Positions 1 to 57,281 of a DNA stretch of 64,000 nt are shown in pieces. The notes below the pieces were generated by a model. The model made no database searches and was not told the DNA's origin. It was given only the letters and a program-made list of their open reading frames with translations. Each line of letters starts with the position of its first letter. Position 1 is the stretch's first letter. The position numbers and the translations under genes were made by a program. Source of the stretch: a virus; IMG/VR virus record IMGVR_UViG_3300045988_179398, positions 1 to 64,000 of that record; one strand, given 5' to 3'.

Positions 1-288
1 AAGCCTTTCTTCTAATATGAACGCGGGACCGAACATTCTTGCGAGCCCGACATACGCGTCTTTATAGACGTTCCAGCCTGCATAACGCCGCTGCTTTTCG
101 TTTGAAACCAACAACGTGTATTGCGACGTTGGAGTGCCTGTTCTCGGGTCGCGATATTCGCCGCCGAATTCGAGGCTTACGGTGCCCGTTATATACGGAA
201 CGACGTTTTCTTCGATGTAACGCTCTATTGCGAGAACGTTGGTTTTGAGCTGTTCTTTTTGCTCAGCTGTAAATGTTAAATTGTCCAT
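1..288 (-). CDS. hypothetical protein, partial (N-terminal 96 codons; C-terminus beyond window start)
   Basis: ATG at 288-286 with AAGGAGG 5 nt upstream (rc of 294-300). My translation MDNLTFTAEQKEQLKTNVLAIERYIEENVV... stays open to position 1. Absent from the ORF track only because no stop lies in the window. Confidence 0.6.
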   Translation of the reverse strand, partial: MDNLTFTAEQKEQLKTNVLAIERYIEENVVPYITGTVSLEFGGEYRDPRTGTPTSQYTLLVSNEKQRRYAGWNVYKDAYVGLARMFGPAFILEERL

Positions 289-304
289 TTTAACCTCCTT
301 GGAC

Positions 305-484
305 TTAATCCTTAATTACGCCGTAAATATCATCGACGTAATAACCCGCGAAAATGTTATAAATCGCGGTGCATTTCTTACCGTTGTATTCAACGATAAT
401 GTCGTTATCCCCGTTGTATTGGAGAATGGTTACTTCGGCAAACTTGCCGTCTAAGCTGTGAATGTGTGCTTGTACTTTGTTCAT
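305..484 (-). CDS. hypothetical small protein (59 aa)
   Basis: ATG 484-482, GGAGG 6 nt upstream (rc 491-495), TAA at 307-305. Translates MNKVQAHIHSLDGKFAEVTILQYNGDNDIIVEYNGKK... Below the track's length cut-off. Confidence 0.6.
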   Translation of the reverse strand: MNKVQAHIHSLDGKFAEVTILQYNGDNDIIVEYNGKKCTAIYNIFAGYYVDDIYGVIKD

Positions 485-541
485 ATCGAACCTCCAGATT
501 TTACTGCGATTATTCAGGCGAACATCGCGAAACGCCGTTTT

Positions 542-688
542 TTACTCCTCGTCCTTTTCAGGCTTCGGGAGCGTTTTGGGGTCGTGGGTTGAACCTGCGT
601 TTTTGACTTTGAGCAGGTCTTTGTCCGCTTCCGTCAACGCGAGTTTCTCGACGCTTTTCTTCGTGTAATCCTTGAAGAAGTTAGCCAT
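542..688 (-). CDS. hypothetical small protein (48 aa)
   Basis: ATG 688-686, AGGAGG 6 nt upstream (rc 695-700). Translates MANFFKDYTKKSVEKLALTEADKDLLKVKNAGSTHDPK... Confidence 0.55.
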   Translation of the reverse strand: MANFFKDYTKKSVEKLALTEADKDLLKVKNAGSTHDPKTLPKPEKDEE

Positions 689-689
689 T

Positions 690-860
690 TCAGTCCTCCT
701 TTTTGAGACGCTCATTTATGAGCTTGTTTCTGATTTTTTCGATTTCGATGCGGTTCTTACATCCCCGCAACGAAGCTCTGATTTCGTCCGTAATTTCTAT
801 ATCGAAGTCACGGAGCAGATGCCGCGTATAACGGCGGTATTCCTTTAACGTGAGTTCCAC
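690..860 (-). CDS. hypothetical small protein (56 aa, GTG start)
   Basis: GTG 860-858 with GGAGG 9 nt upstream. Translates (M)ELTLKEYRRYTRHLLRDFDIEITDEIRASLRGCKNRIEIEKIRNKL... The nearby ATG at 867 gives only 19 aa. Confidence 0.5.
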   Translation of the reverse strand: MELTLKEYRRYTRHLLRDFDIEITDEIRASLRGCKNRIEIEKIRNKLINERLKKED

Positions 861-988
861 TACTCATCACCTCCTTTCGTCCAGAAGAACGATTTCTTTC
901 CTTTGACGGCTCTTTCGTAATCGATAAGAACTGTCGCTCCGACGATTGCCGTCGTTAAACAAACAACTGCGATAATTCCGAGTACCAT
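860..988 (-). CDS. small membrane protein (42 aa, one hydrophobic helix)
   Basis: ATG 988-986 with GGAGG 8 nt upstream. Translates MVLGIIAVVCLTTAIVGATVLIDYERAVKGKKSFFWTKGGDE. Confidence 0.55.
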   Translation of the reverse strand: MVLGIIAVVCLTTAIVGATVLIDYERAVKGKKSFFWTKGGDE

Positions 989-989
989 T

Positions 990-1421
990 TTAATCACCTC
1001 CTTTAAGTGCTTTCTTTAACGATTCAGCTTCGTCAGCTAAACCGTTCCTTTTGAGAACACGATACGCACTTGCGTAATCTCCGAGTTCAACGAAAACGCT
1101 TGCGTCGTCGATCGCGAGTTCTTGCGAGTATGCAACCACGCGTTTTGCCGCGTTCGTGAGAAGACGTTGTGCAACGCCTTTGCGGTCGTACTTGCGCGTT
1201 TTGCGGACTTCGATTACAACCTTCGTCGTTTTGCGGAGCTCTTCCGCTTCGAGAAGCGCCATCTTCGCCGCGTGCAATTGGGCGAGATAACATTTATCTT
1301 CGATGCAAAAACCTGCTTTGGGGCAGATCGAGCAACTGTGCTCGAAACGTGATTTTGCTTCTTCGATAGTCTTTGCCTCGTCTTGAAGTTCGATTGCTTT
1401 GTTCTTGTTAAACCACTTCAT
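990..1421 (-). CDS. hypothetical protein (143 aa), Cys-rich centre
   Basis: Track ORF with AGGAGG upstream (rc around 1429-1435). Contains CSICPKAGFCIEDKC. No family recognised. Confidence 0.8.
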   Translation of the reverse strand: MKWFNKNKAIELQDEAKTIEEAKSRFEHSCSICPKAGFCIEDKCYLAQLHAAKMALLEAEELRKTTKVVIEVRKTRKYDRKGVAQRLLTNAAKRVVAYSQELAIDDASVFVELGDYASAYRVLKRNGLADEAESLKKALKGGD

Positions 1422-1422
1422 A

Positions 1423-1647
1423 TTATTTCACCTCCTTGACGTCCGTCCAGTTGTATTGAGCGTCGCCGCCCGAATTCTTTTTGAAGTTCTTGCAGAAAAG
1501 CATGCAGTAATCATGTGCTTCATTCAAGCATTCTTGCTCAGTTTCGTGTAACGAAGTTGTGAATTCGTTCACGATTTCGTTGCTGCGCTCGTCTCTGAGC
1601 GTTTTGCCATCCACTTCGAGAGTGAATTTGATGTTATAGAATTTCAT
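1423..1647 (-). CDS. hypothetical protein (74 aa)
   Basis: Track ORF with GAAGGAG upstream. First cistron downstream of hammerhead 1. Confidence 0.8.
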   Translation of the reverse strand: MKFYNIKFTLEVDGKTLRDERSNEIVNEFTTSLHETEQECLNEAHDYCMLFCKNFKKNSGGDAQYNWTDVKEVK

Positions 1648-1698
1648 AGTTTACTCCTTCGCCCACCCTTTCGAGGTATATGAACGGGCTTGTTTATT

Positions 1699-1761
1699 GG
1701 GTTTTACCCTGACGCCTTTCGGCGTTTCGTCTCAATCTTCCGAGACTCTTCAGAGGGTTAA
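1699..1761 (-). ncRNA. hammerhead ribozyme, type I topology (copy 1)
   Basis: Minus-strand RNA reads UUAACCCU-CUGAAGAG-UCUC-GGAAGAUU-GAGA-CGAAAC-GCC-GAAA-GGC-GUC/AGGGU-AAAACCC. The full CUGANGA and GAAA core, the A15.1:U16.1 pair and C17 are present. Stems II and III are closed and stem I is open. Confidence 0.85.
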
Positions 1762-1982
1762 TAGTAACTAATTTCGAGTATAAGTAAATCTTCAACGGGC
1801 GAGACGTCGACCGTGTGAAACTCGGCACTCTTGACTTGCTTGCACTTCAAAAGCGCTTTTTTGATTTCTCCGAGCGGAACGTAAATTTGTTCAATACCAC
1901 GAACACGTTCGATTTCGAAGATATCGTTATCGAAGATGCACAATCTACGTTCAGTTACGATGATGTCAGCGAGTGTTTCCAC
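1758..1982 (-). CDS. hypothetical protein (74 aa; start uncertain)
   Basis: Track ORF uses GTG at 1982. The only SD (GGAG, rc 2014-2017) lies 7 nt before an in-frame ATT at 2006-2004, so the true start may be upstream. Confidence 0.65.
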   Translation of the reverse strand: METLADIIVTERRLCIFDNDIFEIERVRGIEQIYVPLGEIKKALLKCKQVKSAEFHTVDVSPVEDLLILEISYY

Positions 1983-2064
1983 TAAAGTGTTATTGAGTAA
2001 TAAAATGGTAGTTCTCCTTTGCTCTAAACCCCTGAACGTCCTATCTACGTTAGCGAAAGGTAAT

Positions 2065-2127
2065 GGGATTTATCCCGACGCCCGAAGGCGTTTCGTCGTA
2101 ATTTTCAACGACTCGTCAGGGGATTAA
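2065..2127 (-). ncRNA. hammerhead ribozyme, type I topology (copy 2)
   Basis: Minus-strand RNA reads UUAAUCCC-CUGACGAG-UCGU-UGAAAAUU-ACGA-CGAAAC-GCC-UUCG-GGC-GUC/GGGAU-AAAUCCC. It has the same architecture as copy 1, with compensatory changes in stems I and II. Confidence 0.85.
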
Positions 2128-2300
2128 AGTTCTTCCTGTTCGCATTCGAGCTGATATTGTTCATCAACTCCGATACTCGAAAGGAATTCAGCAACCATAT
2201 CGGCTGCTTCACGCGCTGTCTCTGCGCAAAAGATGTGAGAGAGTTTTACTTCGTCGTTCGTGTCTAATAGAACGACTTTGAAAGTATAACCTTTCAGCAT
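2124..2300 (-). CDS. hypothetical small protein (58 aa)
   Basis: ATG 2300-2298 with GGAGGTG upstream. Translates MLKGYTFKVVLLDTNDEVKLSHIFCAETAREAADMVAEFLSSIGVDEQYQLECEQEEL. The stop codon lies inside stem I of hammerhead 2. Confidence 0.65.
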   Translation of the reverse strand: MLKGYTFKVVLLDTNDEVKLSHIFCAETAREAADMVAEFLSSIGVDEQYQLECEQEEL

Positions 2301-2312
2301 TTTGTCACCTCC

Positions 2313-2675
2313 TTAAAGGGCGATGCCAAAAAGTTTGGCACCAACCCTTCTTGCTGCTTTGCGAACCTTCTCCGCTTCGGGCGAAGAAAATTTCGCAGCT
2401 GTTTCGAAGGCTTCTCTAAGATACGCCTTCAGGTTGTTACGTCCGAAATCGGTCGTAACTATTTCTTCGCTCTCGATAACGTGAGCGATGTCTCTCGCGC
2501 TTACTGCGAGCATTATAAGCTCATCGTAACGAGCTTCGTTGGACCCCGACACTATAATGTCGTAATCTTCGTAGCCTGCTTGCTTTACATCAGCAACCAG
2601 CTTGCGTGCTTCGTCCGCGAGATATTCCGCGAACTCTTTTGCTTGTTTTAACCAACTGTTCATAACGTTTGTCAT
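2313..2675 (-). CDS. hypothetical protein (120 aa)
   Basis: Track ORF 2313-2711. I prefer ATG 2675-2673 (MTNVMNSW...) because GGAGGG sits 5 nt upstream. Confidence 0.75.
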   Translation of the reverse strand: MTNVMNSWLKQAKEFAEYLADEARKLVADVKQAGYEDYDIIVSGSNEARYDELIMLAVSARDIAHVIESEEIVTTDFGRNNLKAYLREAFETAAKFSSPEAEKVRKAARRVGAKLFGIAL

Positions 2676-2728
2676 AAAACCCTCCATTGGGTGCTCGCTT
2701 AACTCCTGCATTTCAGCAGTGAGTGCTT

Positions 2729-2772
2729 ACACCCACACCTTTTGAAAAGGCGGAATTACATTATTGTAATTC
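2729..2772. promoter_or_regulatory. two palindromes in the leftward promoter/leader region (operator candidates)
   Basis: CCTTTTGAAAAGG at 2729-2741 has 6-bp arms. GAATTACA-TTAT-TGTAATTC at 2753-2772 has perfect 8-bp arms and contains the recurring AATTACAT motif. Confidence 0.45.
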
Positions 2773-2795
2773 ACTTTTATTACTATATATAGTAT

Positions 2796-3110
2796 ATGTT
2801 AACCCATCTCCTCCTCAACCCAAAATTTTCTTCTCCTCACATAAAACCCCTCCATCCCCCATATCCCGCCCTTCGTAAAAAATTTTTTCCCAAACCCGCC
2901 TATAAAACTCCCAAATTCCCCTTTTATCCACCATCTGGCACAACTCCCCTCTCTCGCCTGTCACCATACCCTATCGGTAAGAGTGCCGTTTTGGCACACT
3001 CTCCACCCCACCCATATGCCAGACCCTCAACCCAACCACGCAACCATTCCCACGCCTTCCTCACAAATCAGGAAATTACATTCAGCCTTCCAAAATCCAT
3101 TTCGCCTTTT
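2796..3110. other. about 300-nt C-rich, nearly G-free tract on the plus strand (G-runs on the minus strand)
   Basis: By eye only about 20 G in 300 nt. The minus strand reads GGGCGGGATATGGGGGATGGAGGGG and GGGTGGGGTGG. The Pro-rich ORFs here lack any SD. Confidence 0.6.
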
Positions 3111-3145
3111 CGGCTTTTCCCAAAATTTAAAAAAATCAAAAATCC
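3073..3145 (+). repeat. regulatory-region repeat, copy 1 (AAATTACATTC ... AAAATTTAAAAAAATCAAAAA)
   Basis: Shares order and sequence blocks with 3702-3774. A 21-nt core (3122-3142) is identical to 3751-3771. Confidence 0.7.
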
Positions 3146-3157
3146 ACCAAAAATCAC

Positions 3158-3186
3158 TTGACAAATCTTCCCGCTTATGTTATACT
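3158..3186 (+). promoter_or_regulatory. sigma70/SigA-type promoter
   Basis: TTGACA (3158-3163), 17-nt spacer ending in TGT, TATACT (3181-3186). Lies 22 nt before the ATG at 3209. Confidence 0.75.
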
Positions 3187-3208
3187 ATAACCAAACAAGG
3201 AGGTATTT

Positions 3209-3703
3209 ATGAAATTCGAAGAATGCAAAATTGGCGATATCGTCACACCTAAAACAGATAAAATAAAAACTTATTGCTTTCGCGGTGGAACCTCTTATAT
3301 CGCATTGGCAAAAGAATTTATAATAACCGAACTCAATCGCGCTACAAAGACTGTGGATATAACTTCTACAGATCCAAAAAACGATACAGTATGCCTATTT
3401 GTCTATCCGTCATGTCTTAACCCCGCCAACTCTGACAAATTCTCAATGTCCGAAGCGCTTCATGGCAAAATAATAACGCCCCCGCAAACGCCAGATTACA
3501 AATTAGACTTCGAGGTACGCCGCGAGAAAAACGAGCTTTCGGCTTATTATCACGGTGTCAAACTCGCGACCGTGCGCTGCCACCCAGACGACACTTACGA
3601 CGAGGAGTTCGGGCTTCACCTTTTACTCCGCCGCGCGTGCCTGAAACTCAAAGACGAACACACGGTGGTCGAGACGGTCGAAGAGCTTTTGCAAAAACCG
3701 TAA
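3209..3703 (+). CDS. hypothetical protein (164 aa), moron-like single gene
   Basis: Track ORF with AAGGAGG 6 nt upstream and its own consensus promoter. No family recognised. Confidence 0.85.
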   Translation: MKFEECKIGDIVTPKTDKIKTYCFRGGTSYIALAKEFIITELNRATKTVDITSTDPKNDTVCLFVYPSCLNPANSDKFSMSEALHGKIITPPQTPDYKLDFEVRREKNELSAYYHGVKLATVRCHPDDTYDEEFGLHLLLRRACLKLKDEHTVVETVEELLQKP

Positions 3704-3774
3704 ATTACATTCGGGCGGCTAAAATCGATTTTAACTTTTTAGCGTTTTCGAAAATTTAAAAAAATCAAAAAACC
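3702..3774 (+). repeat. regulatory-region repeat, copy 2
   Basis: AAATTACATTC at 3702-3712 and AAAATTTAAAAAAATCAAAAA at 3751-3771. Similarity to copy 1 ends where the TnpB element begins. Confidence 0.7.
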
Positions 3775-3875
3775 GACTTTGCATGGAAACGGTTGAAAGA
3801 CAACGGTTTGCAATCTTAATCCTTTTAAGGGTTTGGTCAAAGAGTCTATAAAATGAATATGAGGAGGTGATAAGT

Positions 3876-4988
3876 ATGTTAAGAACCTACAAATATAGAT
3901 TATATCCAAATAAACAGCAAGAAATACTGTTACAAAAAACATTTGGATGTTGCAGATTTGTGTATAATCAAACTTTGGATTACAGGAAGAAATTATATGA
4001 AAACGAAAACAAAAGTATGAATAAATTTTCTTGTAATCAATATGTAAATCAAGTTCTTAAAAAGGAGTTTGAATGGTTAAAAGAAGTAGACAAATTCTCT
4101 TTAACTAATTCCGTTTGGAATATGGACGCTGCTTATCAGAACTTCTTTGTATTACATAGCGGTTATCCTAAGTTTAAGAGCAAACGAGATAATCATAAAT
4201 CTTACAAAACAGATTTTACAAATAATAATATAGCGGTTTCGTTTAAAAGAAATAAAGTCAAACTACCAAAACTTAAATGGGTAAAAGCAAAACTACACCG
4301 AGAATTTGTTGGTAAAATTAAATCAGCTAATATTTCACAGGAACCGAGTGGTAAGTATTTTATTTCTATATTAGTAGATGAGATCTATAATGAAACACCT
4401 TCAAGGGTCGATAGTAAAGTTGGAATTGATTTAGGTATAAAAGATTTACTTATCACTTCAAACGGAGATAAATTCGAAAATATTCACACTCTTAAAAAAT
4501 ATGAAAATAAGCTTATAAAACAACAGCAAAGATTATCTCGAAAAGTCAAGGGCTCAAATAACCACAATAAGCAAAAGATTAAAGTTGCAAGATCACACGA
4601 AAAAATTCGTAATATCAGATTAGATTACTTACATAAAATCACTCACAAACTTATTAACGAAAATCAAGTAATAGTTAGTGAGGATTTGAATGTAGGTAAA
4701 ATGATGGAAGAACATAATCTTGCAAAACAAATTCAGGATTGCGGTTGGTACGAATTAACACGACAATTGCAATATAAAGCAGATTGGAATAATAGACAAT
4801 ATATTAAAATTGGCAGATATGTTCCAAGTAGTCAAACTTGCAATTGTTGCGGATATATAAATCCAGAAGTTAAAAATCTATCTGTTAGAAAGTGGATCTG
4901 CCCTGAATGTGGAACAAAACACGATAGAGATATAAACGCTGCTAAAAATATTTTAGCAGAAGGGTTAAAACAATTGACAAAAGCATAA
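3876..4988 (+). CDS. tnpB: TnpB (OrfB) RNA-guided endonuclease of the IS200/IS605 family
   Basis: N-terminal MLRTYKYRLYPNKQQ. RuvC-like VGIDLGIKD and VSEDLNV. C-terminal CNCCG...CPECG zinc finger followed by HDRDINAAKNI. ATG 3876 preferred (GAGGAGG 8 nt upstream) over the track's GTG 3867. Confidence 0.9.
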   Translation: MLRTYKYRLYPNKQQEILLQKTFGCCRFVYNQTLDYRKKLYENENKSMNKFSCNQYVNQVLKKEFEWLKEVDKFSLTNSVWNMDAAYQNFFVLHSGYPKFKSKRDNHKSYKTDFTNNNIAVSFKRNKVKLPKLKWVKAKLHREFVGKIKSANISQEPSGKYFISILVDEIYNETPSRVDSKVGIDLGIKDLLITSNGDKFENIHTLKKYENKLIKQQQRLSRKVKGSNNHNKQKIKVARSHEKIRNIRLDYLHKITHKLINENQVIVSEDLNVGKMMEEHNLAKQIQDCGWYELTRQLQYKADWNNRQYIKIGRYVPSSQTCNCCGYINPEVKNLSVRKWICPECGTKHDRDINAAKNILAEGLKQLTKA

Positions 4989-5107
4989 TAAAGTGCTATA
5001 ATAAAAAATACCGTTGGAACTACGGAAATTTACGCTTGTGGAGACAGAGGTTGCGAAGTCGATGAAGCAAGAAACCCTCACCTTTTTAGGAGCTGTGGGT
5101 GGTTCAC
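4880..5107 (+). ncRNA. candidate omega RNA (reRNA) overlapping the tnpB 3' end and right end
   Basis: Placement follows established TnpB biology. Local hairpins are visible, e.g. CCGT-TGGAACT-ACGG at about 5013-5027. Boundaries are not determined. Confidence 0.4.
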
Positions 5108-5328
5108 AAATACGCAGTTTTAGTGCAGAATCGGTTTTTTAACTGCTCGAAATCGACGGGTTTAAAATGACCCGACAAAGACCCAATGTTTAATACTTTT
5201 GACCCAATACGGGTTTACGTCCAAAATAACAAACATAAACTTAAACACGTCTTTTGTTCTAATCCACGCGAAAAGTCGGTTTCGGCTCGGTTCGCGCAAT
5301 CTTGTTCGTGATTTCAATTTAACATCGA

Positions 5329-5379
5329 TTTTATCAATCTAACATCCGAATGTTAAATGTCTAAAACGAATGTTACTAT
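5329..5379. promoter_or_regulatory. nested TAACAT/ATGTTA inverted repeats overlapping an extended -10 (TGTTACTAT)
   Basis: TAACAT occurs near 5330 and 5340 and ATGTTA near 5349 and 5370. TGT-TACTAT lies at 5371-5379 on the plus strand. Confidence 0.35.
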
Positions 5380-5385
5380 ATCACC

Positions 5386-5520
5386 TTACTGATACAAAAC
5401 CGCCTCGCTCGTTTTTATCCTGTGATTTCAAATTCGGTAATCTCCGTTTCTCCGATTAAAAACGAGCTCTGCGATTTTAAGTAAGCAAAAAGCCCCGCCG
5501 AAACGGAGCTTTGTTTTTTT
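5386..5520 (+). ncRNA. candidate small RNA (about 130 nt)
   Basis: Lies downstream of the extended -10 at 5371-5379. An 11-bp long-range stem pairs GCTCGTTTTTA (5407-5417) with TAAAAACGAGC (5457-5467). It ends at the intrinsic terminator 5491-5520. No SD-led ORF. Confidence 0.3.
5491..5520. terminator. bidirectional intrinsic terminator between convergent units
   Basis: AGCCCCG-CCGAAA-CGGAGCT stem-loop followed by TTGTTTTTTT on the plus strand and preceded by AAAAA, so U-runs flank it on both strands. Confidence 0.6.
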
Positions 5521-5536
5521 GACAAACTGATTTTTT

Positions 5537-5788
5537 TTACCAACTTATTCGCAAGACTGTTTTCGTATCTTCGTCGACGCAATCCACATTATATCCAAGA
5601 TTTCGAAGTCCTTCCTGTATTTCAACAACAACGAACAACATGCAATGTTCAAAATCCCAAACAATGCTTGTTTCGCCGTGCTCTGCTGCTTGCCTGATGT
5701 TTTTGAAGATTTGGTTCTCTAACCATTTCTTGCCAAGCGTTTTGGTAACTTCTCGTGCCTGTTTCACCGTCAATCTTTCTTTTTCCAT
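5537..5788 (-). CDS. hypothetical protein (83 aa)
   Basis: Track ORF with GCAGGAGAAG upstream. Confidence 0.75.
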   Translation of the reverse strand: MEKERLTVKQAREVTKTLGKKWLENQIFKNIRQAAEHGETSIVWDFEHCMLFVVVEIQEGLRNLGYNVDCVDEDTKTVLRISW

Positions 5789-5864
5789 AACTCTTCTCCT
5801 GCTCTAACGGGCTAACGCAATTATGGCTACGCCGCGAACCCGATTTATCTAACCCTTTCGGAGA

Positions 5865-6620
5865 TTAGTCTTCTATTATAATACATCCAACTTTATAGCT
5901 CAACGCCGTTGTCGTATCGAGCCCGATTAACTTACGCTCTTTATCGACGTAAATATCGCCGTCTATCTCTCCCCACTTCCCAGCGAACCTCTCGTTCAAT
6001 TCTTTCGCTCGCCAGTGTCCAAACACGATGGTTTGGTCGGGTTTTACCTTAATCTCATCAAAGGCTCTTATATAATCGGGAGTCTTTGCCCACGAAGCGG
6101 TCGCCCAGTCGTCTCTGTCGAATTCTTCCAGTCCCAAACCGCGAGTAAAATAATCCATCGGTACAAACCCGTGCGTGATAATATAATGCTCCATCTCGAA
6201 ATACCACGGAAGCGATTTGAGCCAGTTGTAAAACCCGACGTTAATCATCACCTTCGCCGCGTCGAATTGCAGGTAATAATCGCGCTTTACTTGATTTGGG
6301 TAACGTCCCAAAAACGAAGCAAACGTGTTGTGCTCGCCATTATATATATCGGTTTCGGTCAGCTGCCTACGCTCGATTGCGTCGATGAGAATGCTCTCGT
6401 GATTTCCCCGAATGCAAATCGGCTTATTTGTGTGATGGGGCGAAGTGAGATATCGCCAAATATCCACACAATCCGAATTGCTCCGCGCCGCCCTGCCGAA
6501 ATAATCCCCGCACCCGACGAGTTGGTGTTGCGGGTTCGCCGCATCATAACCCATTTCGGTAATCGCGGTTATAAGTGCCTCGTAATTCCCGTGCGGGTCT
6601 GCAAAAACAAAATATGTCAT
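5865..6620 (-). CDS. PPP-family metallophosphatase (Ser/Thr phosphatase or ApaH-like, as in lambda phosphatase)
   Basis: Motifs in order: FADPHGN (DxH), CGDYFGR (GDxxxR), RGNHE, ITHGF, VFGHW. Confidence 0.85.
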   Translation of the reverse strand: MTYFVFADPHGNYEALITAITEMGYDAANPQHQLVGCGDYFGRAARSNSDCVDIWRYLTSPHHTNKPICIRGNHESILIDAIERRQLTETDIYNGEHNTFASFLGRYPNQVKRDYYLQFDAAKVMINVGFYNWLKSLPWYFEMEHYIITHGFVPMDYFTRGLGLEEFDRDDWATASWAKTPDYIRAFDEIKVKPDQTIVFGHWRAKELNERFAGKWGEIDGDIYVDKERKLIGLDTTTALSYKVGCIIIED

Positions 6621-21076: not shown

Positions 21077-21943
21077 ATGATAAAACAAGTAAAAAGGGAA
21101 GTTGAAGAAGAAAATATAATAGACAGCGTGTTATCGTCTGAAACGAATGAAACCATAGATCCTACCGAAGGGTTGTCGGAAGAAGATTTAGCAAATAGGC
21201 GAGAAGTTTTGTCGATATTTCATTATGACCCATTTGAAAGAGAATGTTTATCAGATCGTAAAAAAATGTATAGAGATGTTACCATAATGGTCACACCAGA
21301 TCTCTCAACTGATTTACCAAAACAAAGAGGATGTATTGATTTGGTTCGAAGTTATTTGAGAGCCGATAAAATTTCGGTAGCAATTCAAGAGCTCACGAAA
21401 GATGCGGATACGATGATAAATAATGATAAAAAATTAAAAACCTTGCAGGATTTTCAAAAGACAACGAGCGACATAATCCAAAAAAACTTAAAAGATTTTG
21501 GATTTAGTGAGCGTTATTCGTTAGCAAAAAGTAAGGGTGTTGGAACGCTTTCTTATATAATGCGTGAAAGTGAAGAAGTCGACCGCGATGACGAGAAAAT
21601 AAATATTTACGACGTTGAAACAAGCAAAAGTATGCAGTTGGCAAGCGACATAAGCGCCGAATCGTTTTTTAAGCAAATCGCGTTGAATGCGGGCGATTAT
21701 AAGGATATCGTAACGAAACAGAAAAAATTAATCAAAGAATTGACGGATGAAAATAAAAAACTCAAAGAAGAAAATCGGCTTATTTACGAACAAATAACCA
21801 AAGAGGAGCTTTTGAAAGAACTTGCAAAGAAACTCGAAGGGAAAGGTTTAGGGCGTAGAGAAATACAGGATATGGTTCTCGCAGAAATTCATTATGATGA
21901 TAATGAAATAAAAGAAATGAAGAAGCGAGGTAAAAATAAATGA
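21077..21943 (+). CDS. hypothetical protein; possible small terminase subunit (by position only)
   Basis: Immediately upstream of terL, which it overlaps. Coiled-coil C-terminus. No motif recognised. Confidence 0.35.
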   Translation: MIKQVKREVEEENIIDSVLSSETNETIDPTEGLSEEDLANRREVLSIFHYDPFERECLSDRKKMYRDVTIMVTPDLSTDLPKQRGCIDLVRSYLRADKISVAIQELTKDADTMINNDKKLKTLQDFQKTTSDIIQKNLKDFGFSERYSLAKSKGVGTLSYIMRESEEVDRDDEKINIYDVETSKSMQLASDISAESFFKQIALNAGDYKDIVTKQKKLIKELTDENKKLKEENRLIYEQITKEELLKELAKKLEGKGLGRREIQDMVLAEIHYDDNEIKEMKKRGKNK

Positions 21944-23844
21944 TAAGTTTATATAGCCGAAAAACAGAAACCGACCTTACGATACGTAAAAAAGAGTCGA
22001 TGGACAAATATGTCGATTTGATTCAATGGGGAAGAGAAAACCCAACGAAATTTATCGAAGAAATTTTCGGGATACAACTTATCGACTTTCAAAAAAACCT
22101 TATTCTCGGAACGTGGACTTCAAACCGCGCGGTTTGGTGTGCTGCTCGTAACAGCGGTAAATCATTCTTGGTTGCGATATATGCAATGCTTCGAGCGCTT
22201 CTTTTGCCAAATTGCACGATTTATATCGTATCTAACTCGGCTGACCAAGCGCAAGCGACCTTTAACAAAATTTGTAAATTATGCCGTGGTGAAGAGCAGT
22301 CGGTTCAGACAGACCCCTGTATGTTTTATAACGAGTTGGTTAAAAGCAACGCCAACACCGATGGTTTCATAAAGAAACAAGGTAATTATTCGCTCACGCT
22401 TTTTAACGGCAGCACAATTCAAACACTCGCAGCAAACCCTGATACCGCTCGTGGTCGCCGTGCGAATGTAGTTATATTTGATGAGGCGGCATACGTTTCT
22501 GATGTCATGTATCAAGCGTGTTTGCCTTTCATCAACCAAGACCCGAACTTCAAAACAGGGAAAGGTTTCAATTCGAAGGTTCACCCGAAGACTTTCAATA
22601 ACCAGATTATAATGTGTTCTTCGGCAGGAAGCGTTAATACCGAATGTTATAGAGCTTATAGACAATGTATAATAAATTCGATTATTGGTTATCCAGGATA
22701 TTACGCCGCAGATATAAATTGCGAGATGACACTGCATCCTTATATAAACGGTAAACCCGTTCCAGCGATAGCGAATAAGGCTGAAATGGAAATGATAAGA
22801 GATACCGATATTCGAAAATACAACACGGAATTTATGAATTTGTGGACAGATATGGAATCGCCCGATTCGCTTCTTCAACGTTCCGTAATAATTCGTAACG
22901 AAAAAAAATACTTACCCGAAACCGCGAGTACCGACAAAACGAAGAAATACGTTGTTTGTTGGGACCCAGCCGTTCAACACGATAACAGCATTGTTTTGAT
23001 CGGGGAAATATTCAGAGATGAAAAAGTTGGATTAAAAGGCAGGTTAGTAAACTGCTTCAACCTTATTGAACCCGCCAAACCAGGCGGAGGAGAAAGGCAA
23101 CCACTTCGAATGCCAGACCAAATCACTTGGGTTCGTAAGTTTTTGCGCGATTATAACAACGCAGAGAATCACGAATACACAAACGTAACGCTTCGAATGG
23201 ACTCAGGTTCGGGTGCAGGTGGTAAAAGCATACCAGATTACTTAATGGCGTCTTATACAGATGAAAACGGTGTTAGGCATGTCGGTGTTTATGACAGCAA
23301 ATTTAACCCAGATGTTGATGATGTCGGCACGTCGTATCAAAACATGCACAGGGACAAATTCCCCGAAGCGGTAGATTGTTTACAAGCGGTAGACCCGCGT
23401 AAATACAGAACTGAGATGTTCGGCGCGTTGACTTCGATGATTACACAGGATTACATCGAGTTCCCACCATCGCTTCCTTCGCGTGGTGAAATTGAAAACG
23501 AAGATGGTTCGGTATATAAGTTGTCGCTAGAGGAGACCCGCGCGTTACTCGAATTTGACCTCTTGAAAGACGAAGCGGTAAGGATGCAACAAACGAAATT
23601 GACGACGGGCGAAGTGAAATACGCAATGCCAAGCGGCAAAGATCACGACGATAGAGTTTATTGTCTTGCTCTTTTCGCCTCTTATTTGGCAAATATGCGC
23701 CAAGCCGAAAATCGTGCGTCTGAAAATAATAACACAAGTGAATTTGCCGATTATATAATGAGCCGTATTAGAGAAGGCGACGGCAAAAAGACTCAAAACC
23801 CGTTCGCGGGTAAATCAAATCCGTTCGCGGGTAAAAAGTGGTAA
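21940..23844 (+). CDS. terL: terminase large subunit
   Basis: Walker A-like WCAARNSGKSF, Walker B NVVIFDEAAYV, RNase-H-like nuclease segment VVCWDPAVQHDNSIVLIGE. 634 aa. Confidence 0.85.
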   Translation: MISLYSRKTETDLTIRKKESMDKYVDLIQWGRENPTKFIEEIFGIQLIDFQKNLILGTWTSNRAVWCAARNSGKSFLVAIYAMLRALLLPNCTIYIVSNSADQAQATFNKICKLCRGEEQSVQTDPCMFYNELVKSNANTDGFIKKQGNYSLTLFNGSTIQTLAANPDTARGRRANVVIFDEAAYVSDVMYQACLPFINQDPNFKTGKGFNSKVHPKTFNNQIIMCSSAGSVNTECYRAYRQCIINSIIGYPGYYAADINCEMTLHPYINGKPVPAIANKAEMEMIRDTDIRKYNTEFMNLWTDMESPDSLLQRSVIIRNEKKYLPETASTDKTKKYVVCWDPAVQHDNSIVLIGEIFRDEKVGLKGRLVNCFNLIEPAKPGGGERQPLRMPDQITWVRKFLRDYNNAENHEYTNVTLRMDSGSGAGGKSIPDYLMASYTDENGVRHVGVYDSKFNPDVDDVGTSYQNMHRDKFPEAVDCLQAVDPRKYRTEMFGALTSMITQDYIEFPPSLPSRGEIENEDGSVYKLSLEETRALLEFDLLKDEAVRMQQTKLTTGEVKYAMPSGKDHDDRVYCLALFASYLANMRQAENRASENNNTSEFADYIMSRIREGDGKKTQNPFAGKSNPFAGKKW

Positions 23845-50375: not shown

Positions 50376-53300
50376 ATGATAATGAATCGTGCTGAATTAG
50401 ATAAATATTTGGCTAATAATATAGTTTATACTGGCGAATATCTCGAAGCTATGTCTGCGAAAGACTTTGCAACTTTAAACGAAGCCGCGAAAAAGAAGGT
50501 TCAAGAAATGGCTAAGCGCGGAAGAGAAGAGAGTGCGATGAAAGGGTCTTTGGCGGATATGGAAGCAAAGGCTAAAAGTCTTGGATATGATGTTGCGTAC
50601 AATGTAAACAAAAAAACTAATGAAATAGAAGTCATCTTGGTTGAAAAAGGGCAAGATGTAAAGAAAAATTATGAAAAAGTTGCGGCTGAAGCACCGACCT
50701 TCAAACTTTCTATCGGCGAAGGAACTCGTGGCGGAAAGGGAAGAATGGCTGCGCCAAAATCTTACGCACCACACGTTAGCAAAAGCGGCAAAGGGACTGT
50801 TTTACTCACACAGGTGGAAGAAACTATAAATAGTGTTACTGACGCTTTGTCAAAGCTCGACAGCAGAAAAACAAGACCCGACAAAGGATATGTTAAACAT
50901 GAAGTGAAGAAAGCACAGCGGTTGGCAGAACAATCTATCGTTACGACCGAGGGCTATTCGGTTGTTGATGAAGATAAATTCATGGAAGAAATGAAAAGAG
51001 AAACCTCGAATGCAAGAGGACAATTTGTTCGAACTAGTATGAGAGTAGGCGGCTTAATTGGCGAAGTTATTAAAAAAAGCAATTTTACCAAAAATATAAC
51101 AGCTGCTCAGAGATTAACACAGGACGAACTTAAAGCTCTTAATCAAAAGGCGGACGCGGTTGTAACGAAATACCTTGCGATTTATGCACAAGAAGGAGAA
51201 AAAGCAGCCGATAATTATTTTAAAGCCACCAAGGTCTTAAAAGACGATTTTAAATTGAGTGAAGATGATATTAAAGCTCAATTAGAAGCGGTTAAATCTG
51301 GATTTGGTGACTTTTTATATTTGCCGTCTTCCTTTGGTTTGAGCGGTGATAACGCTTTAAATACGAAAAAATTTTCCTATGTAGGCGATAGAGATTTAGC
51401 ATTCCGTCCATCCACGAGAACTGGTAGACATACGTCGCAAACAAGGAATTATCTCGAACGTAGCCAAAGAGCAAAATCAAGAGTCAAAAAAAGAGCCACG
51501 GAACGTTTTATTCCTGATGTTGATAAAGCAGATACTTCTTATTATAAAGAAATGGGGCATCAATTATATAAGCGTGGCTTGGTTTCTGGTGGGACTAAGG
51601 ATGGGATTGAATATACTCCGCAGATGTTGGTCACTAAAGCATATGAAGATGCTGCGGCTGCTTATATTGAAGAGAAGGTAAAAAAACTCAAAGAGAGCAA
51701 AAAATATAATAAAGCTTCCGACGCTCGTAAAGCAAAAATGGAAGAAGAATTGCGAGATAATATTCAAAAATCGCTTCCGACGATAGCTCAACTTGGCATT
51801 ATGGAAGATGCTGGTTTAATGAGTGAATCCGCCGCTCGTGAATTCGAATCGAGCAGAATGGTGACGACGACTATTTCTGAAAATGAATACGACAAATTGC
51901 AAAAAGAAGCCAAAGAAAAATACGAAAAACTTTCTGAAAAAGCTAAGAAGGCTGTAAATTTATCGGATTTTACCGATCGATTTATCGCTAAAAAAGCACT
52001 TAAACGCAGTAAACTTTCTGACGTAGATATTTTTCGTAATGGAGCGGAGGGTGCTTTTTCTATATCTGCAACGGAAACAGTTGGTGGAAATAGAGCTAAA
52101 TTGCTTTCGAGATATACTGGCGCTCGTGAAACAGACGTTGCCGTTCCTGATTTTATTTTCAATAGGATGGCAAAAGAGCTTAAGATTGAAGGCGCCGACA
52201 TAATTAGTGCGGCGAAAAAGTTTAAAGCGGAGGAAATTCCTGGGTATTTTCAAGGATTATTAGGTGCTTCTATATCGCAACGAACAGCAGGCAAAAACCA
52301 AGATGAAATAGAAAAAACACTTAAAGATACGGTTGCCGCTTTAAATTCAATCGGCTTTAAAGCTTCACTTGGTGAGAATGGAGAAATTTTTATAGATAAT
52401 TCTGACGAAGCAGTGTCACAGATTAAGTGGGATAAAGCATTGGGTTATCTTGAAAGTCTCAATATTCTTAAGCAAATCGATGGCGGTTTTGAATTTGTAA
52501 ATCCAGCAACAATTATAGAAGATGTTATTAATCAAGCGGATACATACGATCCGTCGAAAAAGGTTAAAACAAGCCCAAAAGAGTATTCAAGTGTAAAACG
52601 TGATATCGCCGAGGCGATGGCTGCCTCTGGAGATAAGAGCAAATTCAAATCTTTGGCGGCAGATGTCGATAGAATGTATGATCCAACCACTGGAGCGTTC
52701 GGCGCCGAAGCCAAAAAGGCATCGGTTGACATAGATGCCATATTGAATAAAAAAACGGGGTCTATAGTAAAAACTTATCAAACGACCATAAGTGGGAAAG
52801 ACAGAATAAAAGACGTCACTTCTCTTAAGAGAAAAAGTTATAAAGGGAAGATGAAAAATAAAAAGGGTGCTCACTATATAATATCCGTTGGGCGTGGTTC
52901 TGGGTACACCATTGACGCCTCTCAGTTAGAAATGGCAGCAATCAATTATCAAGAGGCTGGCGGTTTGCTTACTCGTGAAGATTATGAAAACACAGTTCTT
53001 GGTACAATTAATAAAGTCAAGTCGGAAATACTCACGAATGATACAACTGCCTCGGTAGATGTCATGATCGATCCTGGCACTGATTTTGGATTTGGTATGT
53101 CGTTCGATGGAGAAAACGCCTCGGAAGGAGCAACTGGAAGATTTTTGGTTTTGCCAAATGTTGAAATAGACACTGTGCAAAAGGATGGCGAAACATTATA
53201 TAGTTTGCCAAGTTACAACAAAGAGATTCATTCTCTCATTGGTTCGATTAAATCGGGGCAAGGGGATAGCGGTAAAATAGCACAAGAGTTAAATAAGAAA

Positions 53301-56300
53301 ATGTTTGATGCCGCACATTCAAGCAAAGGGACGTTGTGGCAAAAGGCGCATACTAAGCGACAGGGCGGATCAACGAGTGGTCACATTACTGGCATATCTC
53401 AAGATGCGATTGATAAAGCGTTAGCTGAAGGCGATATCGAAAAAGCAAAGAGATTGGCTTCCGATATCTGGGTAAGCGAAAAAGCAATGATGGAAATGCT
53501 TTCCAGCAAAACCCCTTATACAAGCGCAGATGGTGTTTATAATGTTTCCGAACATCAAAATTTTTTAACAGAAGCGGTGAAGCACTTATATAAAGACGAA
53601 GCTGGTGGTATACTCGATGGTTTAAGTGGTTCCGATGACGAAAAAAATAAAATATTATCCAGAGCAATTGCTCAAAGAATAGCAGATGATAAATTTACTG
53701 GCGCAAAAGAAGGGTTGGCGGGCATAATGAACCGTTTCCCGTCGATTGCACAATTATCAGCTGTTTTCAGTAGTTACCATGTTTCTTCCCAATTACAAGG
53801 GAAAGATATAATGGTTGGTGCCGCAATTGCAAAATTTGTAAACGGCGACTATGACGGAGATACTTTGCAACTTGTATTGGGGTTGATGAGCAGCGGAAAA
53901 TCGTTTGAAGAAGCCGATGAAATGGTCGAAAGGCAGCGAGAGAAAAACCTTAATCTTTATAAACAGATGTTCTCGAAAGGAAAAGGTGAGCCGCTCGATA
54001 AAACTGTCGCAACTCTAACAGATGCGCAAAAATTATCAGACCCGAAATATATGGGATTGTCTGCGTTGGCGGCTAAATTCAATAAACCTTATACGGGAAT
54101 GTTTTCTAATATTTCCACGCGTATAAGAGAAGGGTTGAAATTTACTGGTTTTGATGTTATCGATGAGCAAGGCAATCCAAGAGAATTATCTTCGGTTAAT
54201 GATTATATCGACGTAATAAGAGGTAAATTAGTTGCTGGCGTTGGGCAAATATTGGAACAAGATAGTATTTCTTCTAAAAAGGTCGAAAAGCGTTTAGATG
54301 AAGCAAGGAAAGCGAAAGGAAGAGATTTAACATCCGAAGAAGAAGAGGCAGAGCAACTTAAAGTTTTGCAAGAGTTTGAAGATTTGTATAATATGATGAG
54401 GGATCCGAAATCCTCATATTCCGATATTATAGGAAGAATGTCCGAAATGGGATTATTCGGTTCAGACGTCACTCAAATTTCAAGCACTTTAAGCTCAAAT
54501 ATTTTAGGATTGTTAAAAGGCGTATCTGGCGAAGATAGAAATATAATTCTTTCGAGACTCGGAATTTCTGAAGACGATTTAACGAAAGGTGCTTTATCAT
54601 CAGATGTTTATAAAAATGCTGGGAATGCTTTGGAAAACCAACTTGTTGATCCAACCACAGGAAAGCGGCTCAAAATATTCGCAGGCGAGTATGGAACTGG
54701 TTTAGCAACCTCGAGATCTTTCACCCCTTATATGAAGCAGGATACCTATGAGCTTCTTAGGTTTTTAAAATCATTGGAAGATGTTAATAGCGTATTAAAA
54801 AAGACTGGCGAAATAATTGATGAAAATGGTAACAAATTCAATCAGTATGGTGAGAGAATTAAAGAAGCGAAATCTTCGTTGGCGGCAGAAGCAGGGCAAG
54901 AATCTGCAAAAGTTGTTATTGCTGCTAAAGAAGGAAAGACGATAGAAAGGAATGTTGATATTTACCAGAAATTATCTGAAAAATTAAAGACGGCTGGTAA
55001 TAATTATAACGAGATTAACCGTTTATCGACTTCTGAGCTAAAAAGCAGATTACTTCCTTACGGCGGAGAACAAACGACTGGAATCGACGAGAAAACTTTA
55101 AATAGCGTTTATCGAAAAATCAAAGCTGGCAAAACGTTTACAAAAGCAGAACTCGCTACGCAATTTGGTGTCGAGGACGAAAAGGCGTTAAACTCATTAT
55201 TCCTTGGTAATTTAAGTACCGTTCGTGGTAATTATATCCATAACTTATCGCAGGGAGATGTTAAAGGCGCAAGGAAAGAAAAACTGAAACTTCAAAAAAT
55301 GTTTGGAGTTTTGGGGTATTCAGATGAGCAAATCGCAAGCACGTTTGATACATATAAGGCTGGCGCCAAAAACGTAAAGGCTATAACTAAACAATACGGC
55401 AGGTCTTTGGGCTCAGAAATTCCTTTTATCGGAATGACGAGTGATGGGCAATACGTTGTCAATGCTCGAGGAGACGAATTTTTCGTTGGCGAGCGTGCAA
55501 ATCCGTTTTATGATAAAGACTTTAAAGATCCAAATCAAAAGAAGATGCAAAGGGTCTTTACCGCTGTTGATTATAAAACACATACAAGTGGGAAACTCGA
55601 AGACTCTGATATTGTTCAAGGTGTAATATACAAAACATTTCTTGAAGATTTACAGACACGTTTAAAGAGTATAAAAGGCGACGTAGATATTGATTCTTTC
55701 CGTGCCGAAGTTAGTAAAGGTATGAAATATACCTCGAAAACAGAAGAAAGAGAAGCTTTGCTTGCTAAAATTACACCAGATCTTATTAAAAACCTGAAAG
55801 AATCAGATGTTGTTCAAACAGAAATTATTGTTGTAAATCCCTCAACTGGTTCTGCTCAAGCATATTCCGTTGGGGCTGATAAAGATAAATTCAAAGTAGC
55901 ACGTGATATAATTCTTAGTGGCGATACTTCTCCTTTAACATCGGAAGAGAAGACTTCGGTAAAAAGCGTAGCGAAGAAAAGGACTGACGCAAGATACTTT
56001 AAACCAGGCGAACAACAAGAAGGGATTGGAAGTATAGAGGATAAACTCAAACAAAGTGGTGGTGTTACCGCTGAGCAAAAGAACGAATCTCAAAAAGAGT
56101 ATAACACTCTCGTTTCAGAAGAGTTTAAACTCAAAAAAGAAATCGCTGCTCTCGATAAAGAACGCTGGAAGTTGACCAATATTGAAGGCAAAAAGAGCAC
56201 CGACTATACAGTTCAAAATCTCGATGCGGAAAAACAATGGCGCCAAGACGAGTTAAAACGTATGCAAGATCGCAAAGCCGAACTTGAGGGTTTGGGTGCG

Positions 56301-56974: not shown

Positions 56975-57281
56975 TGACGATTGTCTGGGTCACTATAAAC
57001 TCCTTTAATTGCTGGAACCCCCTTAGAACCATATAGCTACAACATAACGATGAAATATGCGCAAGTGTGATAGTTGAAAATATATGGATTGGGAAATCAG
57101 CAGCCAAGCCTCGAATAGAGGAAGGTTCAACGAATATGTTCCACGAGTGTGGATAATGGGGAGCTCTACATAGAGAAATCTATGCGAAAGATATATTCTG
57201 AACTTCTGGGGAAACTCAGAGAAAATTCTATTATAGAATCTTTTAAATGATAAACTAAATTTAAAAGTAACACAATTACAG
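56975..57281 (+). ncRNA. group I self-splicing intron (IA-like, ORF-less, 307 nt)
   Basis: P1: exon AGUGGCU (56968-56974) pairs with GGUCACU (56988-56994), with a terminal U.G. P AAUUGCUGGAA (57007-17), Q AAUCAGCAGCC (57095-105), R GUUCAACGAAUAUG (57125-38), S AAGAUAUAUUC (57188-98). Ends in G57281. Splicing restores the frame. Confidence 0.85.

Follow-up and report, generated by a model that had tools for sequence, protein, structure and literature searches.

Two predicted type I hammerhead ribozymes bracket a small gene in an uncultured tailed phage whose relatives exchange ribozyme classes at the same gene boundaries

Why would a self-cleaving RNA lie directly against the stop codon of a small phage gene? 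The question is raised by positions 1699-1761 (minus strand) of the 64-kb stretch of viral DNA analysed here (IMG/VR record IMGVR_UViG_3300045988_179398, positions 1 to 64,000; hereafter the window), where a single hammerhead ribozyme had been predicted from the letters alone. We found that this hammerhead, HH1, is real and that the original prediction missed its twin, HH2, which lies at 2072-2124 on the same strand, so that two ribozymes bracket one short open reading frame (ORF), ORF82b. We propose that both are active type I hammerheads that cut a leftward polycistronic early phage mRNA into single-gene mRNAs, a reading to which we give a probability of about 0.8. All numbers below are window positions, and both hammerheads are read on the minus strand, from high to low.

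The minus strand of HH1 reads UUAACCCU (1761-1754), CUGAAGAG (1753-1746) and UCUC-GGAAGAUU-GAGA (1745-1730), continues with C-GAA-AC, GCC-GAAA-GGC and GUC up to 1711, and closes with AGGGUAAAACCC (1710-1699). The core CUGAAGA (C3, U4, G5, A6, A7, G8 and A9) occupies 1753-1747, G12, A13 and A14 lie at 1728-1726, and C17 is found at 1711. Three helices of 5 bp each are present: stem I, ACCCU/AGGGU, joins 1758-1754 to 1710-1706; stem II, GUCUC/GAGAC, joins 1746-1742 to 1733-1729 and carries an 8-nt loop II (GGAAGAUU, 1741-1734); and stem III, ACGCC/GGCGU, joins 1725-1721 to 1716-1712 under a GAAA loop (1720-1717). The pairs next to the core are all standard (U2.1-A1.1, G10.1-C11.1 and A15.1-U16.1), and the scissile bond is predicted between 1711 and 1710. 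When the 54-mer was folded in isolation, its minimum free energy (MFE) structure was the hammerhead fold (-19.4 kcal/mol, z = -3.0).

In HH2, stem I is formed by AUCCC (2124-2120) with GGGAU (2076-2072), the core is CUGACGA (2119-2113), stem II is GUCGU/ACGAC with UGAAAAUU as loop II (2107-2100), and stem III is again ACGCC/GGCGU, here closed by UUCG; each stem has 5 bp. The core-adjacent pairs are C2.1-G1.1, G10.1-C11.1 and A15.1-U16.1, and with C17 at 2077 the predicted cleavage falls between 2077 and 2076. HH1 and HH2 are 80% identical to each other inside one genome. Both have the type I topology, with an open stem I whose strands are the ends of the motif, an 8-nt loop II and a tetraloop (GAAA or UUCG) as loop III. 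Under the acceptance rules of Perreault et al. 2011 (PMC3088659), both have standard core-adjacent pairs and no multiple mispairs in short stems.

For HH1, the original prediction was accurate in nearly all of its detail. Its minus-strand string for 1761-1699 matches base for base; the complete invariant core that it named (CUGANGA, GAAA, A15.1:U16.1 and C17) is read at every position; its three stems (I ACCCU/AGGGU, II G-UCUC/GAGA-C and III ACGCC/GGCGU with a GNRA loop) can each be read in the sequence; and the position of C17 leads to the same bond, 1711|1710. Its type I call agrees with the core, the three helices and the open stem I, with Hammerhead_1 as the best Rfam family and with a score of 74.4 bits under the family model described below. 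The ORF 1758-1982 that it cited also exists in the window. Where it had placed the UAA of this ORF inside the 5' strand of stem I, the fit is looser: the stop (1760-1758) abuts the helix, and its last A (1758) alone is shared, a 1-nt overlap. The same junction recurs upstream, the last base of the ORF58 UAA (2126-2124) being the first base of HH2 stem I.

Neither hammerhead is likely to have arisen as a random match. We scanned both strands of the window with a strict descriptor that required the whole core, H17, the A15.1-U16.1 pair and no fewer than 4 bp per stem. It returned exactly two sites, with CUGA starting at 1753 and 2119, both on the minus strand. In 300 dinucleotide-preserving shuffles of the window the mean was 0.003 sites, one shuffle giving one site and none giving two; therefore, the match is far beyond chance. 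A looser pattern also hit the plus strand at 43694 and 54568, and we discarded these matches as spurious, since they lack the helices.

On the other hand, an Rfam scan of the whole window at gathering thresholds returned no matches. In E-value mode, RF00163 (Hammerhead_1) aligned end to end with HH1 at 20.4 bits (E = 0.21 for 4 kb and 3.4 for the whole window) and with HH2 at 22.8 bits, and its consensus aligned without core mismatches in both. The covariance-model check that had been suggested for HH1 thus returned the expected family as the best one, but below its gathering score of 34 bits. Orthologues in related phages score 21.5 bits, and in 20 homologous loci (e.g. L116, L053, L059, L083, L074 and L032) every type I hammerhead stays below the threshold, although Rfam did detect 4 pistol, 5 twister-P5 and 2 type II hammerhead ribozymes nearby in those loci. 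Because the same model fails on all type I homologues in the 20 loci, we do not count the low score against the assignment: it reflects poor model sensitivity for a long-looped phage subfamily (8-nt loop II, longer stem III) and is not contrary evidence. The Rfam type I threshold systematically misses this subfamily.

We collected the family with a core and stem III pattern taken from the window (CTGANGAGTC...GACGAAACGCC...GGCGTC), scanned over IMG/VR, and found the same core and stem III in at least 118 viral contigs. Stem I, which the pattern leaves free, pairs in 122 of 122 occurrences among the matches listed, mostly over 5-6 bp and with very different sequences. In an alignment of 34 distinct members of the subfamily with a 12-nt stem II/loop II insert (A1), from which the window and its close relative L078 were excluded, all five stem I pairs and two of the five stem II pairs covary, with changes on both sides. 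Paired cells amount to 99.8%, against 82% in shuffled alignments and 30-49% with slid partners, and the observed score was reached in none of 500 shuffles; stem III and the other three stem II pairs are fixed by the search pattern and are uninformative for covariation. In loop II, A25 and U27 are invariant and G21 nearly so, though the search did not constrain them, and both GGAAGAUU and UGAAAAUU fit. We read this conserved loop as a putative tertiary-contact surface. The stem I flanks are A-rich in the family, and no pairing partner for loop II could be demonstrated among its members.

A covariance model built from A1 (R1) scores 77.8 bits at 2070-2126 (E 6.5e-25) and 74.4 bits at 1704-1760 (E 1.1e-23), E-values that are partly circular, the family pattern having been derived from the window's own core and stem III; the next match in the window has 9.7 bits. 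The independent evidence in R1 lies in stem I, the inner stem II pairs, loop II and the flanks only.

The functional case comes from related phages. We took syntenic loci through homologues of ORF143, ORF58 and ORF82b (L119, L120, L121, which is the same as L078, and L124-L129). The order ORF58-hammerhead-ORF82b-hammerhead is kept in L124-L129 (R1 75 and 74.6 bits), and in stem II of the HH2 orthologue of L124 (2882-2938) a U:A pair is replaced by G:C, a compensatory change. In L121, a hammerhead lies upstream of the homologue of ORF74a (the gene downstream of HH1 in the window) and of a conserved hairpin of its untranslated region (UTR; CAAGCCGACAC...GUCGGCAAAGGAG). The same slot of L119 and L120, with a nearly identical downstream UTR, holds a twister-sister ribozyme instead (59 and 62 bits; gathering score 34), which in L119 lies at 3646-3723. 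Twister-sister also occupies the ORF74a slot of L124, L127, L136 and L137 (54-62 bits across L119, L120, L124, L136 and L137), and in L133 the slot contains a type I hammerhead with another stem I (AUCCU/AGGAU). In these relatives twister-sister is likewise fused to the upstream stop (GUAACCCGCAAGG).

Further classes take part in this exchange. L121 carries a twister-P5 upstream of its ORF58 homologue, and the 3.3-kb locus L127 (plus strand) holds a pistol (546-612), a twister-P5 (928-978), two hammerheads (1230-1286 and 1592-1648) and a twister-sister (2028-2103), which together fill five consecutive intergenic gaps within 1.6 kb; dense mixed arrays are also found in L133, L124 and L121. An Rfam E-value scan found no twister-sister, twister-P5 or pistol in the window. 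Between ORF132 and ORF58, L127 has a pistol-gene-twister segment that is absent from the window.

Since unrelated folds with a common chemistry replace each other at orthologous gene boundaries, these comparisons strongly suggest that cleavage itself would be the selected trait there, rather than the DNA sequence or a protein-binding feature of one fold. Class swaps within nearly identical flanking UTRs, in a small clade of uncultured phages of ~140 kb, amount to a natural swap experiment, and we regard this replacement as the strongest functional argument, drawn from sequence comparison, for our proposal.

The position at the stop codon turns out to be a property of the family. An ORF of at least 40 codons ends between -25 and +12 nt from CUGA in 86 of 103 unique members among the matches listed, as compared with 20% of random same-strand positions. 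The commonest distance in the family from the first base of the stop to the beginning of stem I is 3 or 2 nt, and both window copies lie at -2. Stop-codon fusion is the norm in this family and not a peculiarity of HH1. The next start codon preceded by a Shine-Dalgarno (SD) sequence follows the cleavage site at a median of 34 nt, again among the matches listed. The cut falls downstream of the stop, and therefore the upstream fragment would never be a non-stop mRNA.

The first nucleotides 3' of each predicted cut can also pair among themselves, forming a hairpin at the 5' end of the 3' product (Table 1). In a nearest-neighbour model, the hammerhead fold and the alternative reach -19.6 and -19.1 kcal/mol in HH1 and -18.9 and -18.8 kcal/mol in HH2, and the product hairpins -4.4 and -5.2 kcal/mol, respectively. 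In 146-nt contexts, the MFE structure retains stems II and III and prefers the alternative pairing over stem I. Once the RNA is cut, the hairpin is intramolecular, and the 5 bp of stem I have to form between two molecules. In the family, 43 of 97 members have a hairpin of 4 bp or more that starts no more than 2 nt from the new 5' end, against 28.5 ± 3.7 when downstream sequences are permuted (p ~3e-4), and a looser definition gives 61 of 96 against 45.1 ± 3.7 (0 of 2000 permutations); both counts are among the matches listed, and the enrichment is moderate and drawn from phylogenetically non-independent members. The mirrored test on the upstream side of family members showed no enrichment. Within this phage group, all hammerheads have the hairpin, namely those of the window, L124, L078 (8 bp) and L133.

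Based on these findings, we propose the following course of events. HH1 and HH2 would be transcribed in one leftward early mRNA of an uncultured tailed phage, each ribozyme lying right after one cistron's stop and ~50-65 nt before the next start codon. Folding co-transcriptionally into the three-way junction, they would cut 3' of C17, at 1711|1710 and 2077|2076. Upstream of the cut, the RNA would comprise a complete ORF with its stop, and stems II and III would give it a structured 3' end that terminates in a 2',3'-cyclic phosphate. The RNA on the downstream side would begin with a 5'-OH, and its first 11-12 nt, freed from stem I, would refold as the 5'-terminal hairpin, which would drive product release and prevent religation. 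Cutting at both sites would release a monocistronic RNA (Table 1) running from a 5'-OH at G2076 to a 2',3'-cyclic phosphate at C1711, with ORF82b followed by the HH1 body as structured 3' end. The hairpin probably shields the 5'-OH from 5'-to-3' decay by RNase J-type enzymes and, depending on the host, could plausibly turn a destabilising cut into a stabilising one. In this way, the stability and translation of neighbouring accessory genes would be uncoupled.

The host is probably a member of the Bacillota, which we favour because of the AGGAGG-type SD sequences, the similarity of the large terminase subunit (TerL) to those of Bacillus and Clostridioides phages, and the Firmicutes bias of pistol (PMC6154101). 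By TerL, the only genome match is L130 (CAVKBM010000005.1, 62 kb), whose TerL is 92% identical to that of the window and which belongs to a metagenome-assembled genome (MAG) labelled 'Bacteroidaceae bacterium'. Given the strong SD usage in the window, we did not trust this label as a host assignment; L130 is probably a phage contig that came to be binned with the MAG.

What we observed directly for this proposal are the sequence and its fold, the membership in a family whose stems covary, the placement with respect to ORFs and class replacement in relatives; cleavage, co-transcription, the fate of the products and protection by the hairpin are what we infer. Several points weigh against it. 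Cleavage at both sites is deduced from sequence and fold rather than from RNA ends, and the tertiary contact between the peripheries of stems I and II that natural hammerheads need for fast cleavage at physiological Mg2+ is something we infer from conservation only. Both hammerheads fall below the Rfam threshold, and the R1 E-values and the hairpin enrichment carry the limits given with them above. The hairpin, being isoenergetic with stem I, could equally inhibit cleavage in the energy model. The RNase J argument is conditional on host identity, for which the only genome match is a Bacteroidaceae-labelled bin. Finally, the biological purpose of phage hammerheads has been described as undefined (PMC6765202), in line with the original prediction, which had called hammerheads known from phage and prophage DNA but their role there unresolved (PMC3088659, PMC6765202).

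The relatives also invite a broader picture. The region is strongly mosaic: L121 and L124 share an identical hammerhead body amid different genes to its left and right, and the window, L127, L124 and L119 differ in which ribozyme-bounded cassettes they have, with the ribozymes at the cassette boundaries. We tentatively suggest, as a possibility well short of even odds, that the hammerheads are one interchangeable form of a 'ribozyme punctuation' of plug-and-play single-gene cassettes in the accessory and early regions of these phages. The slot would accept any of at least four ribozyme classes, cleavage would insulate acquired genes, and the bistable switch between stem I and the 5' hairpin would make the cut irreversible and protect the 5'-OH. 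A cassette, on the same tentative footing, would consist of a 5' UTR, an ORF and a stop fused to a self-cleaver.

The abutment of stop and stem I may also have a regulatory meaning. A ribosome terminating at the UAA would sit over stem I and the CUGANGA core, and stem I competes in addition with the isoenergetic hairpin, so that cleavage might be confined to transcripts whose upstream ORF is untranslated or to a short co-transcriptional window, coupling processing to translation. The family-wide peak of stops 3 or 2 nt ahead of stem I, the difference of at most 0.5 kcal/mol between hammerhead and alternative folds, the alternative MFE structure of the 146-nt contexts and the suggestion of Perreault et al. 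that phage hammerheads may be regulated (PMC3088659) are all consistent with such gating. However, simple genome compaction also predicts stop abutment, twister-sister is stop-fused as well in the relatives (GUAACCCGCAAGG), which makes the placement not hammerhead-specific, and neither copy has a sensor or aptamer domain. We therefore consider gating doubtful; it is compatible with the cutting of the operon into single-gene mRNAs and would be a refinement of that proposal.

A role at the DNA level is unlikely. In that case, conserved ribozyme sequences of 55 nt would serve as portable homology for cassette recombination and RNA cleavage would be incidental, as the mosaicism, the shared hammerhead body of L121 and L124 amid different genes, the coming and going of cassettes and the 80% identity of HH1 and HH2 within one genome might lead one to think. 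Yet the compensatory changes in stems I and II keep RNA pairing and not DNA identity, stem I differs between neighbouring copies, and unrelated classes without sequence similarity fill the same slot, which makes sense only if RNA cleavage is selected.

HH2-ORF82b-HH1 has the arrangement described by Perreault et al. 2011, with same-orientation ribozymes in the intergenic gaps of a phage operon and one gene bracketed. Two such ribozymes flanking a short unit would give a 5'-OH and a 2',3'-cyclic phosphate, ends that RtcB can join, and the same authors raised this possibility for tandem prophage hammerheads (PMC3088659). The 366-nt ORF82b unit might thus be excised and circularised by RtcB or by hammerhead ligation, or the flanking exons might be spliced and ORF82b removed, as in retrozyme or viroid-like circles. 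We consider this very improbable: the stems I differ (ACCCU/AGGGU and AUCCC/GGGAU), so that a hammerhead re-formed from the joined ends would contain a C.A mismatch; the ribozymes paired in relatives are of different classes and could not rebuild a common ligation junction; the ends of the unit are ordinary mRNA features, an SD and start at one and a stop at the other; and Perreault et al. sought spliced or circular products and found none (PMC3088659). Against a chance resemblance or a decayed, inactive relic, for which only the Rfam type I score below the gathering threshold would speak, stand the intact core positions and core-adjacent pairs of both copies, an expectation of 0.003 sites per window, R1 scores of 74-78 bits and the retention of both copies in L124-L129 with a compensatory change, and its likelihood is negligible. 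Processing of the operon mRNA into single-gene mRNAs therefore remains our preferred account of HH1 and HH2.

The surroundings of the two ribozymes are those of a tailed-phage fragment, with TerL at 21940-23844 (26% identity to Bacillus phage terminases), a giant tape-measure gene and an integrase-family gene. Small minus-strand ORFs with strong SDs follow each other in the order ORF132 (2313-2711), ORF58, HH2, ORF82b, HH1, ORF74a, ORF143 (990-1421) and further ORFs. This leftward operon of small genes, both hammerheads included, probably begins at the promoter-like site at the head of the series (Table 1), and just downstream of that site positions 2797-2754 are 96% identical to L119. Weak terminator-like matches on the minus strand, at 2208-2190 and 1810-1792, lie inside the coding sequences of ORF58 and ORF82b and have no proper U tract; we therefore take the small genes between the promoter-like site and the hammerheads to be co-transcribed.

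ORF82b itself probably starts at ATT 2006-2004, a weak start codon 7 nt after AGGAG (2018-2014), because its 81-aa homologue P0002 begins MLLLN... with ATG where the window has ATT; the L124-L129 orthologues also have ATG. Its homologues form only two clusters among 5.8 billion proteins. Pfam and PHROG scans of ten small ORFs around the ribozymes, ORF82b included, gave nothing usable. Downstream of HH1, the 5' UTR of ORF74a has a hairpin in which GCCC (1689-1686) pairs with GGGC (1664-1661).

Table 1. Coordinates of the ribozymes, predicted RNA features and neighbouring genes (window positions unless a related locus is named)
Feature	Position	Strand	Basis or remark
HH1 hammerhead	1706-1759	minus	Core read directly; full-length RF00163 alignment; MFE fold; R1 model; descriptor
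HH2 hammerhead	2072-2124	minus	Core read directly; RF00163 22.8 bits; R1 77.8 bits; descriptor
Predicted hairpin GGGU-AAA-ACCC	1699-1709	minus	HH1 stem I 3' strand and next 7 nt; 5' end of 3' product
Predicted hairpin GGGA-UAAA-UCCC	2065-2076	minus	Starts at first nt of HH2 3' product
Predicted monocistronic RNA, 366 nt	1711-2076	minus	Two predicted cleavage sites and established hammerhead chemistry
ORF58, cistron upstream of HH2	2124-2300	minus	Homologues in L121, L124, L127
ORF82b (listed as ORF 1758-1982), sole gene bracketed by HH2 and HH1	1758-2006	minus	ORF list and homologues
ORF74a, cistron downstream of HH1	1423-1647	minus	SD GAAGGAG 1660-1654; homologues in L119, L120, L121, L124
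Promoter-like TTGAGG-16-TATACT	2791-2818	minus	Consensus scan only
45-nt element	L119 3340-3385; L120 ~3334-3379; L078 1390-1435 (minus); L133 and L137 2636-2685; also L135, L138

The search of the relatives brought up another element. Directly after the UAG of a 44-aa ORF (MDVFDYIR...) lies a conserved stretch of 45 nt, UUCGACGCAGCCUUACAUCCGCACUGCGAAACAACGCGGAUGUU, which can be drawn as an H-type pseudoknot (S1 CGCAG/CUGCG, S2 CAUCCGC/GCGGAUG, A-rich L3). In L119, L120, L133, L137 and L078 it takes the HH2 slot, ahead of the same UTR, and in L136 the same upstream 44-aa ORF is followed by a twister-sister instead. The element is not in the window and has no Rfam match at E <= 10; a search for divergent homologues by exact pattern and upstream ORF found none, all copies being at least 84% related with variation only in predicted loops. 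Because it sits in a ribozyme slot and is replaced by twister-sister in L136, we regard it as a candidate self-cleaver, and it may represent an undescribed self-cleaving or processing motif or else a post-stop pseudoknot of another role. Synteny of the 'ribozyme slot' can in this manner flag uncharacterised RNA elements as candidate new ribozymes.

Three other features of the window lie apart from the two hammerheads. A group I intron-like element (RF00028, E 7e-9; 47.2 bits, with the gathering score at 50) lies at 56932-57221 on the plus strand, between an ORF of 2210 aa (50376-57008) and one of 1371 aa (57352-61467). At its N-terminus, the second ORF aligns with the PhageMin_Tail profile over profile positions 54-201 only, which points to a single tape-measure gene of ~3,500 aa split by a self-splicing intron. 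At ~3784-5114 lies a TnpB-only element of the IS200/IS605 family (TnpB ORF 3867-4988, plus strand) with OrfB_IS605, Cas12f1-like TNB and helix-turn-helix (HTH) domains, which is an insertion relative to L119, L120 and L121, where window position 5115 joins 3783 directly. We rejected this TnpB gene, 2 kb away, as a partner of the ribozymes, as it is on the other strand and absent from relatives that retain them. Within the divergent intergenic region of ~500 nt between the leftward operon and ORF 3209-3703, positions 2830-3150 have G-rich runs on the minus strand and are C/T-rich on the plus strand, where spurious proline-rich ORFs appear; the region is partly conserved in relatives.

How does this arrangement compare with known systems? 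The glmS ribozyme, like the hammerheads of the window, makes by cleavage in a 5' UTR a 5'-OH that decides the fate of the downstream mRNA, and in B. subtilis this end is an RNase J1 substrate according to Collins et al. 2007, as cited in PMC3328962. The glmS ribozyme is ligand-dependent and destabilises its mRNA, whereas the window copies are without a ligand domain and have a 5' end predicted to lie in a hairpin, so that the opposite effect would be expected.

HHphage, of the haloarchaeal viruses HF1 and HF2, is a hammerhead a few nucleotides upstream of an early-gene start codon, and a mapped transcript 5' end no more than 3 nt from its cleavage site supports mRNA 5'-end formation in vivo (discussed in PMC3088659). 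It differs from the window copies in its variant core, its need for high salt and its archaeal virus, and it lies at the head of a transcript and not between cistrons.

The hammerheads represented by RF00163, such as Schistosoma Sm-alpha and satellite-DNA examples, share with HH1 and HH2 the topology, an identical catalytic core and a full-length alignment. The window copies score low (20-23 bits against 34) because their loops II and III are longer than the model allows. They also have a short stem I, and their context is an mRNA and not a repeat transcript. Stem I of the Schistosoma hammerhead has an internal bulge that contacts loop II, and that of the window copies has no bulge.

Twister-sister (RF02681), twister type P5 (RF02684) and pistol (RF02679), which stand in the same slots of sister phages, stop-fused and with the same chemistry (5'-OH and 2',3'-cyclic phosphate), have folds and catalytic cores unrelated to those of the hammerhead. 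The discovery of twister-sister, twister type P5 and pistol is reportedly due to Weinberg et al. in 2015. Hammerhead, twister-sister, twister and pistol share phage-like contexts (PMC8782182, PMC6154101).

The closest parallel is with the tandem prophage hammerheads of Clostridium scindens, Azorhizobium caulinodans and Agrobacterium tumefaciens (the last flanking ardA), which flank single genes and cleave in vitro and in E. coli (Perreault et al. 2011, PMC3088659). The bracketing of single phage genes by hammerheads has thus been known since 2011, and taken alone the window adds two more to thousands of known phage-associated hammerheads; its value lies in the comparative setting. Unlike those examples, the window phage belongs to another lineage, uncultured and of ~140 kb, and megablast and blastn searches of window positions 1-6000 and 1-3200 and of the 57-nt HH2 gave no match among INPHARED phages. 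Its subfamily is set apart by the type I topology with an 8-nt loop II (consensus UGAAAAUU), a stem I of 5-6 bp and A-rich flanks. Stop abutment and the 5'-terminal product hairpin are quantified here, and the phrase 'stop codon' does not occur in PMC3088659. The clade thereby offers testable hypotheses on phage-operon ribozymes, namely insulation of single-gene mRNAs, stop abutment and a post-cleavage 5' hairpin. In the remaining respects the two cases agree: the clusters of Perreault et al., like the window, have the consensus core, are intergenic in phage operons and flank single genes or short blocks of inconstant identity, and there, too, the proposed role is to turn long phage transcripts into single-gene mRNAs (PMC3088659).

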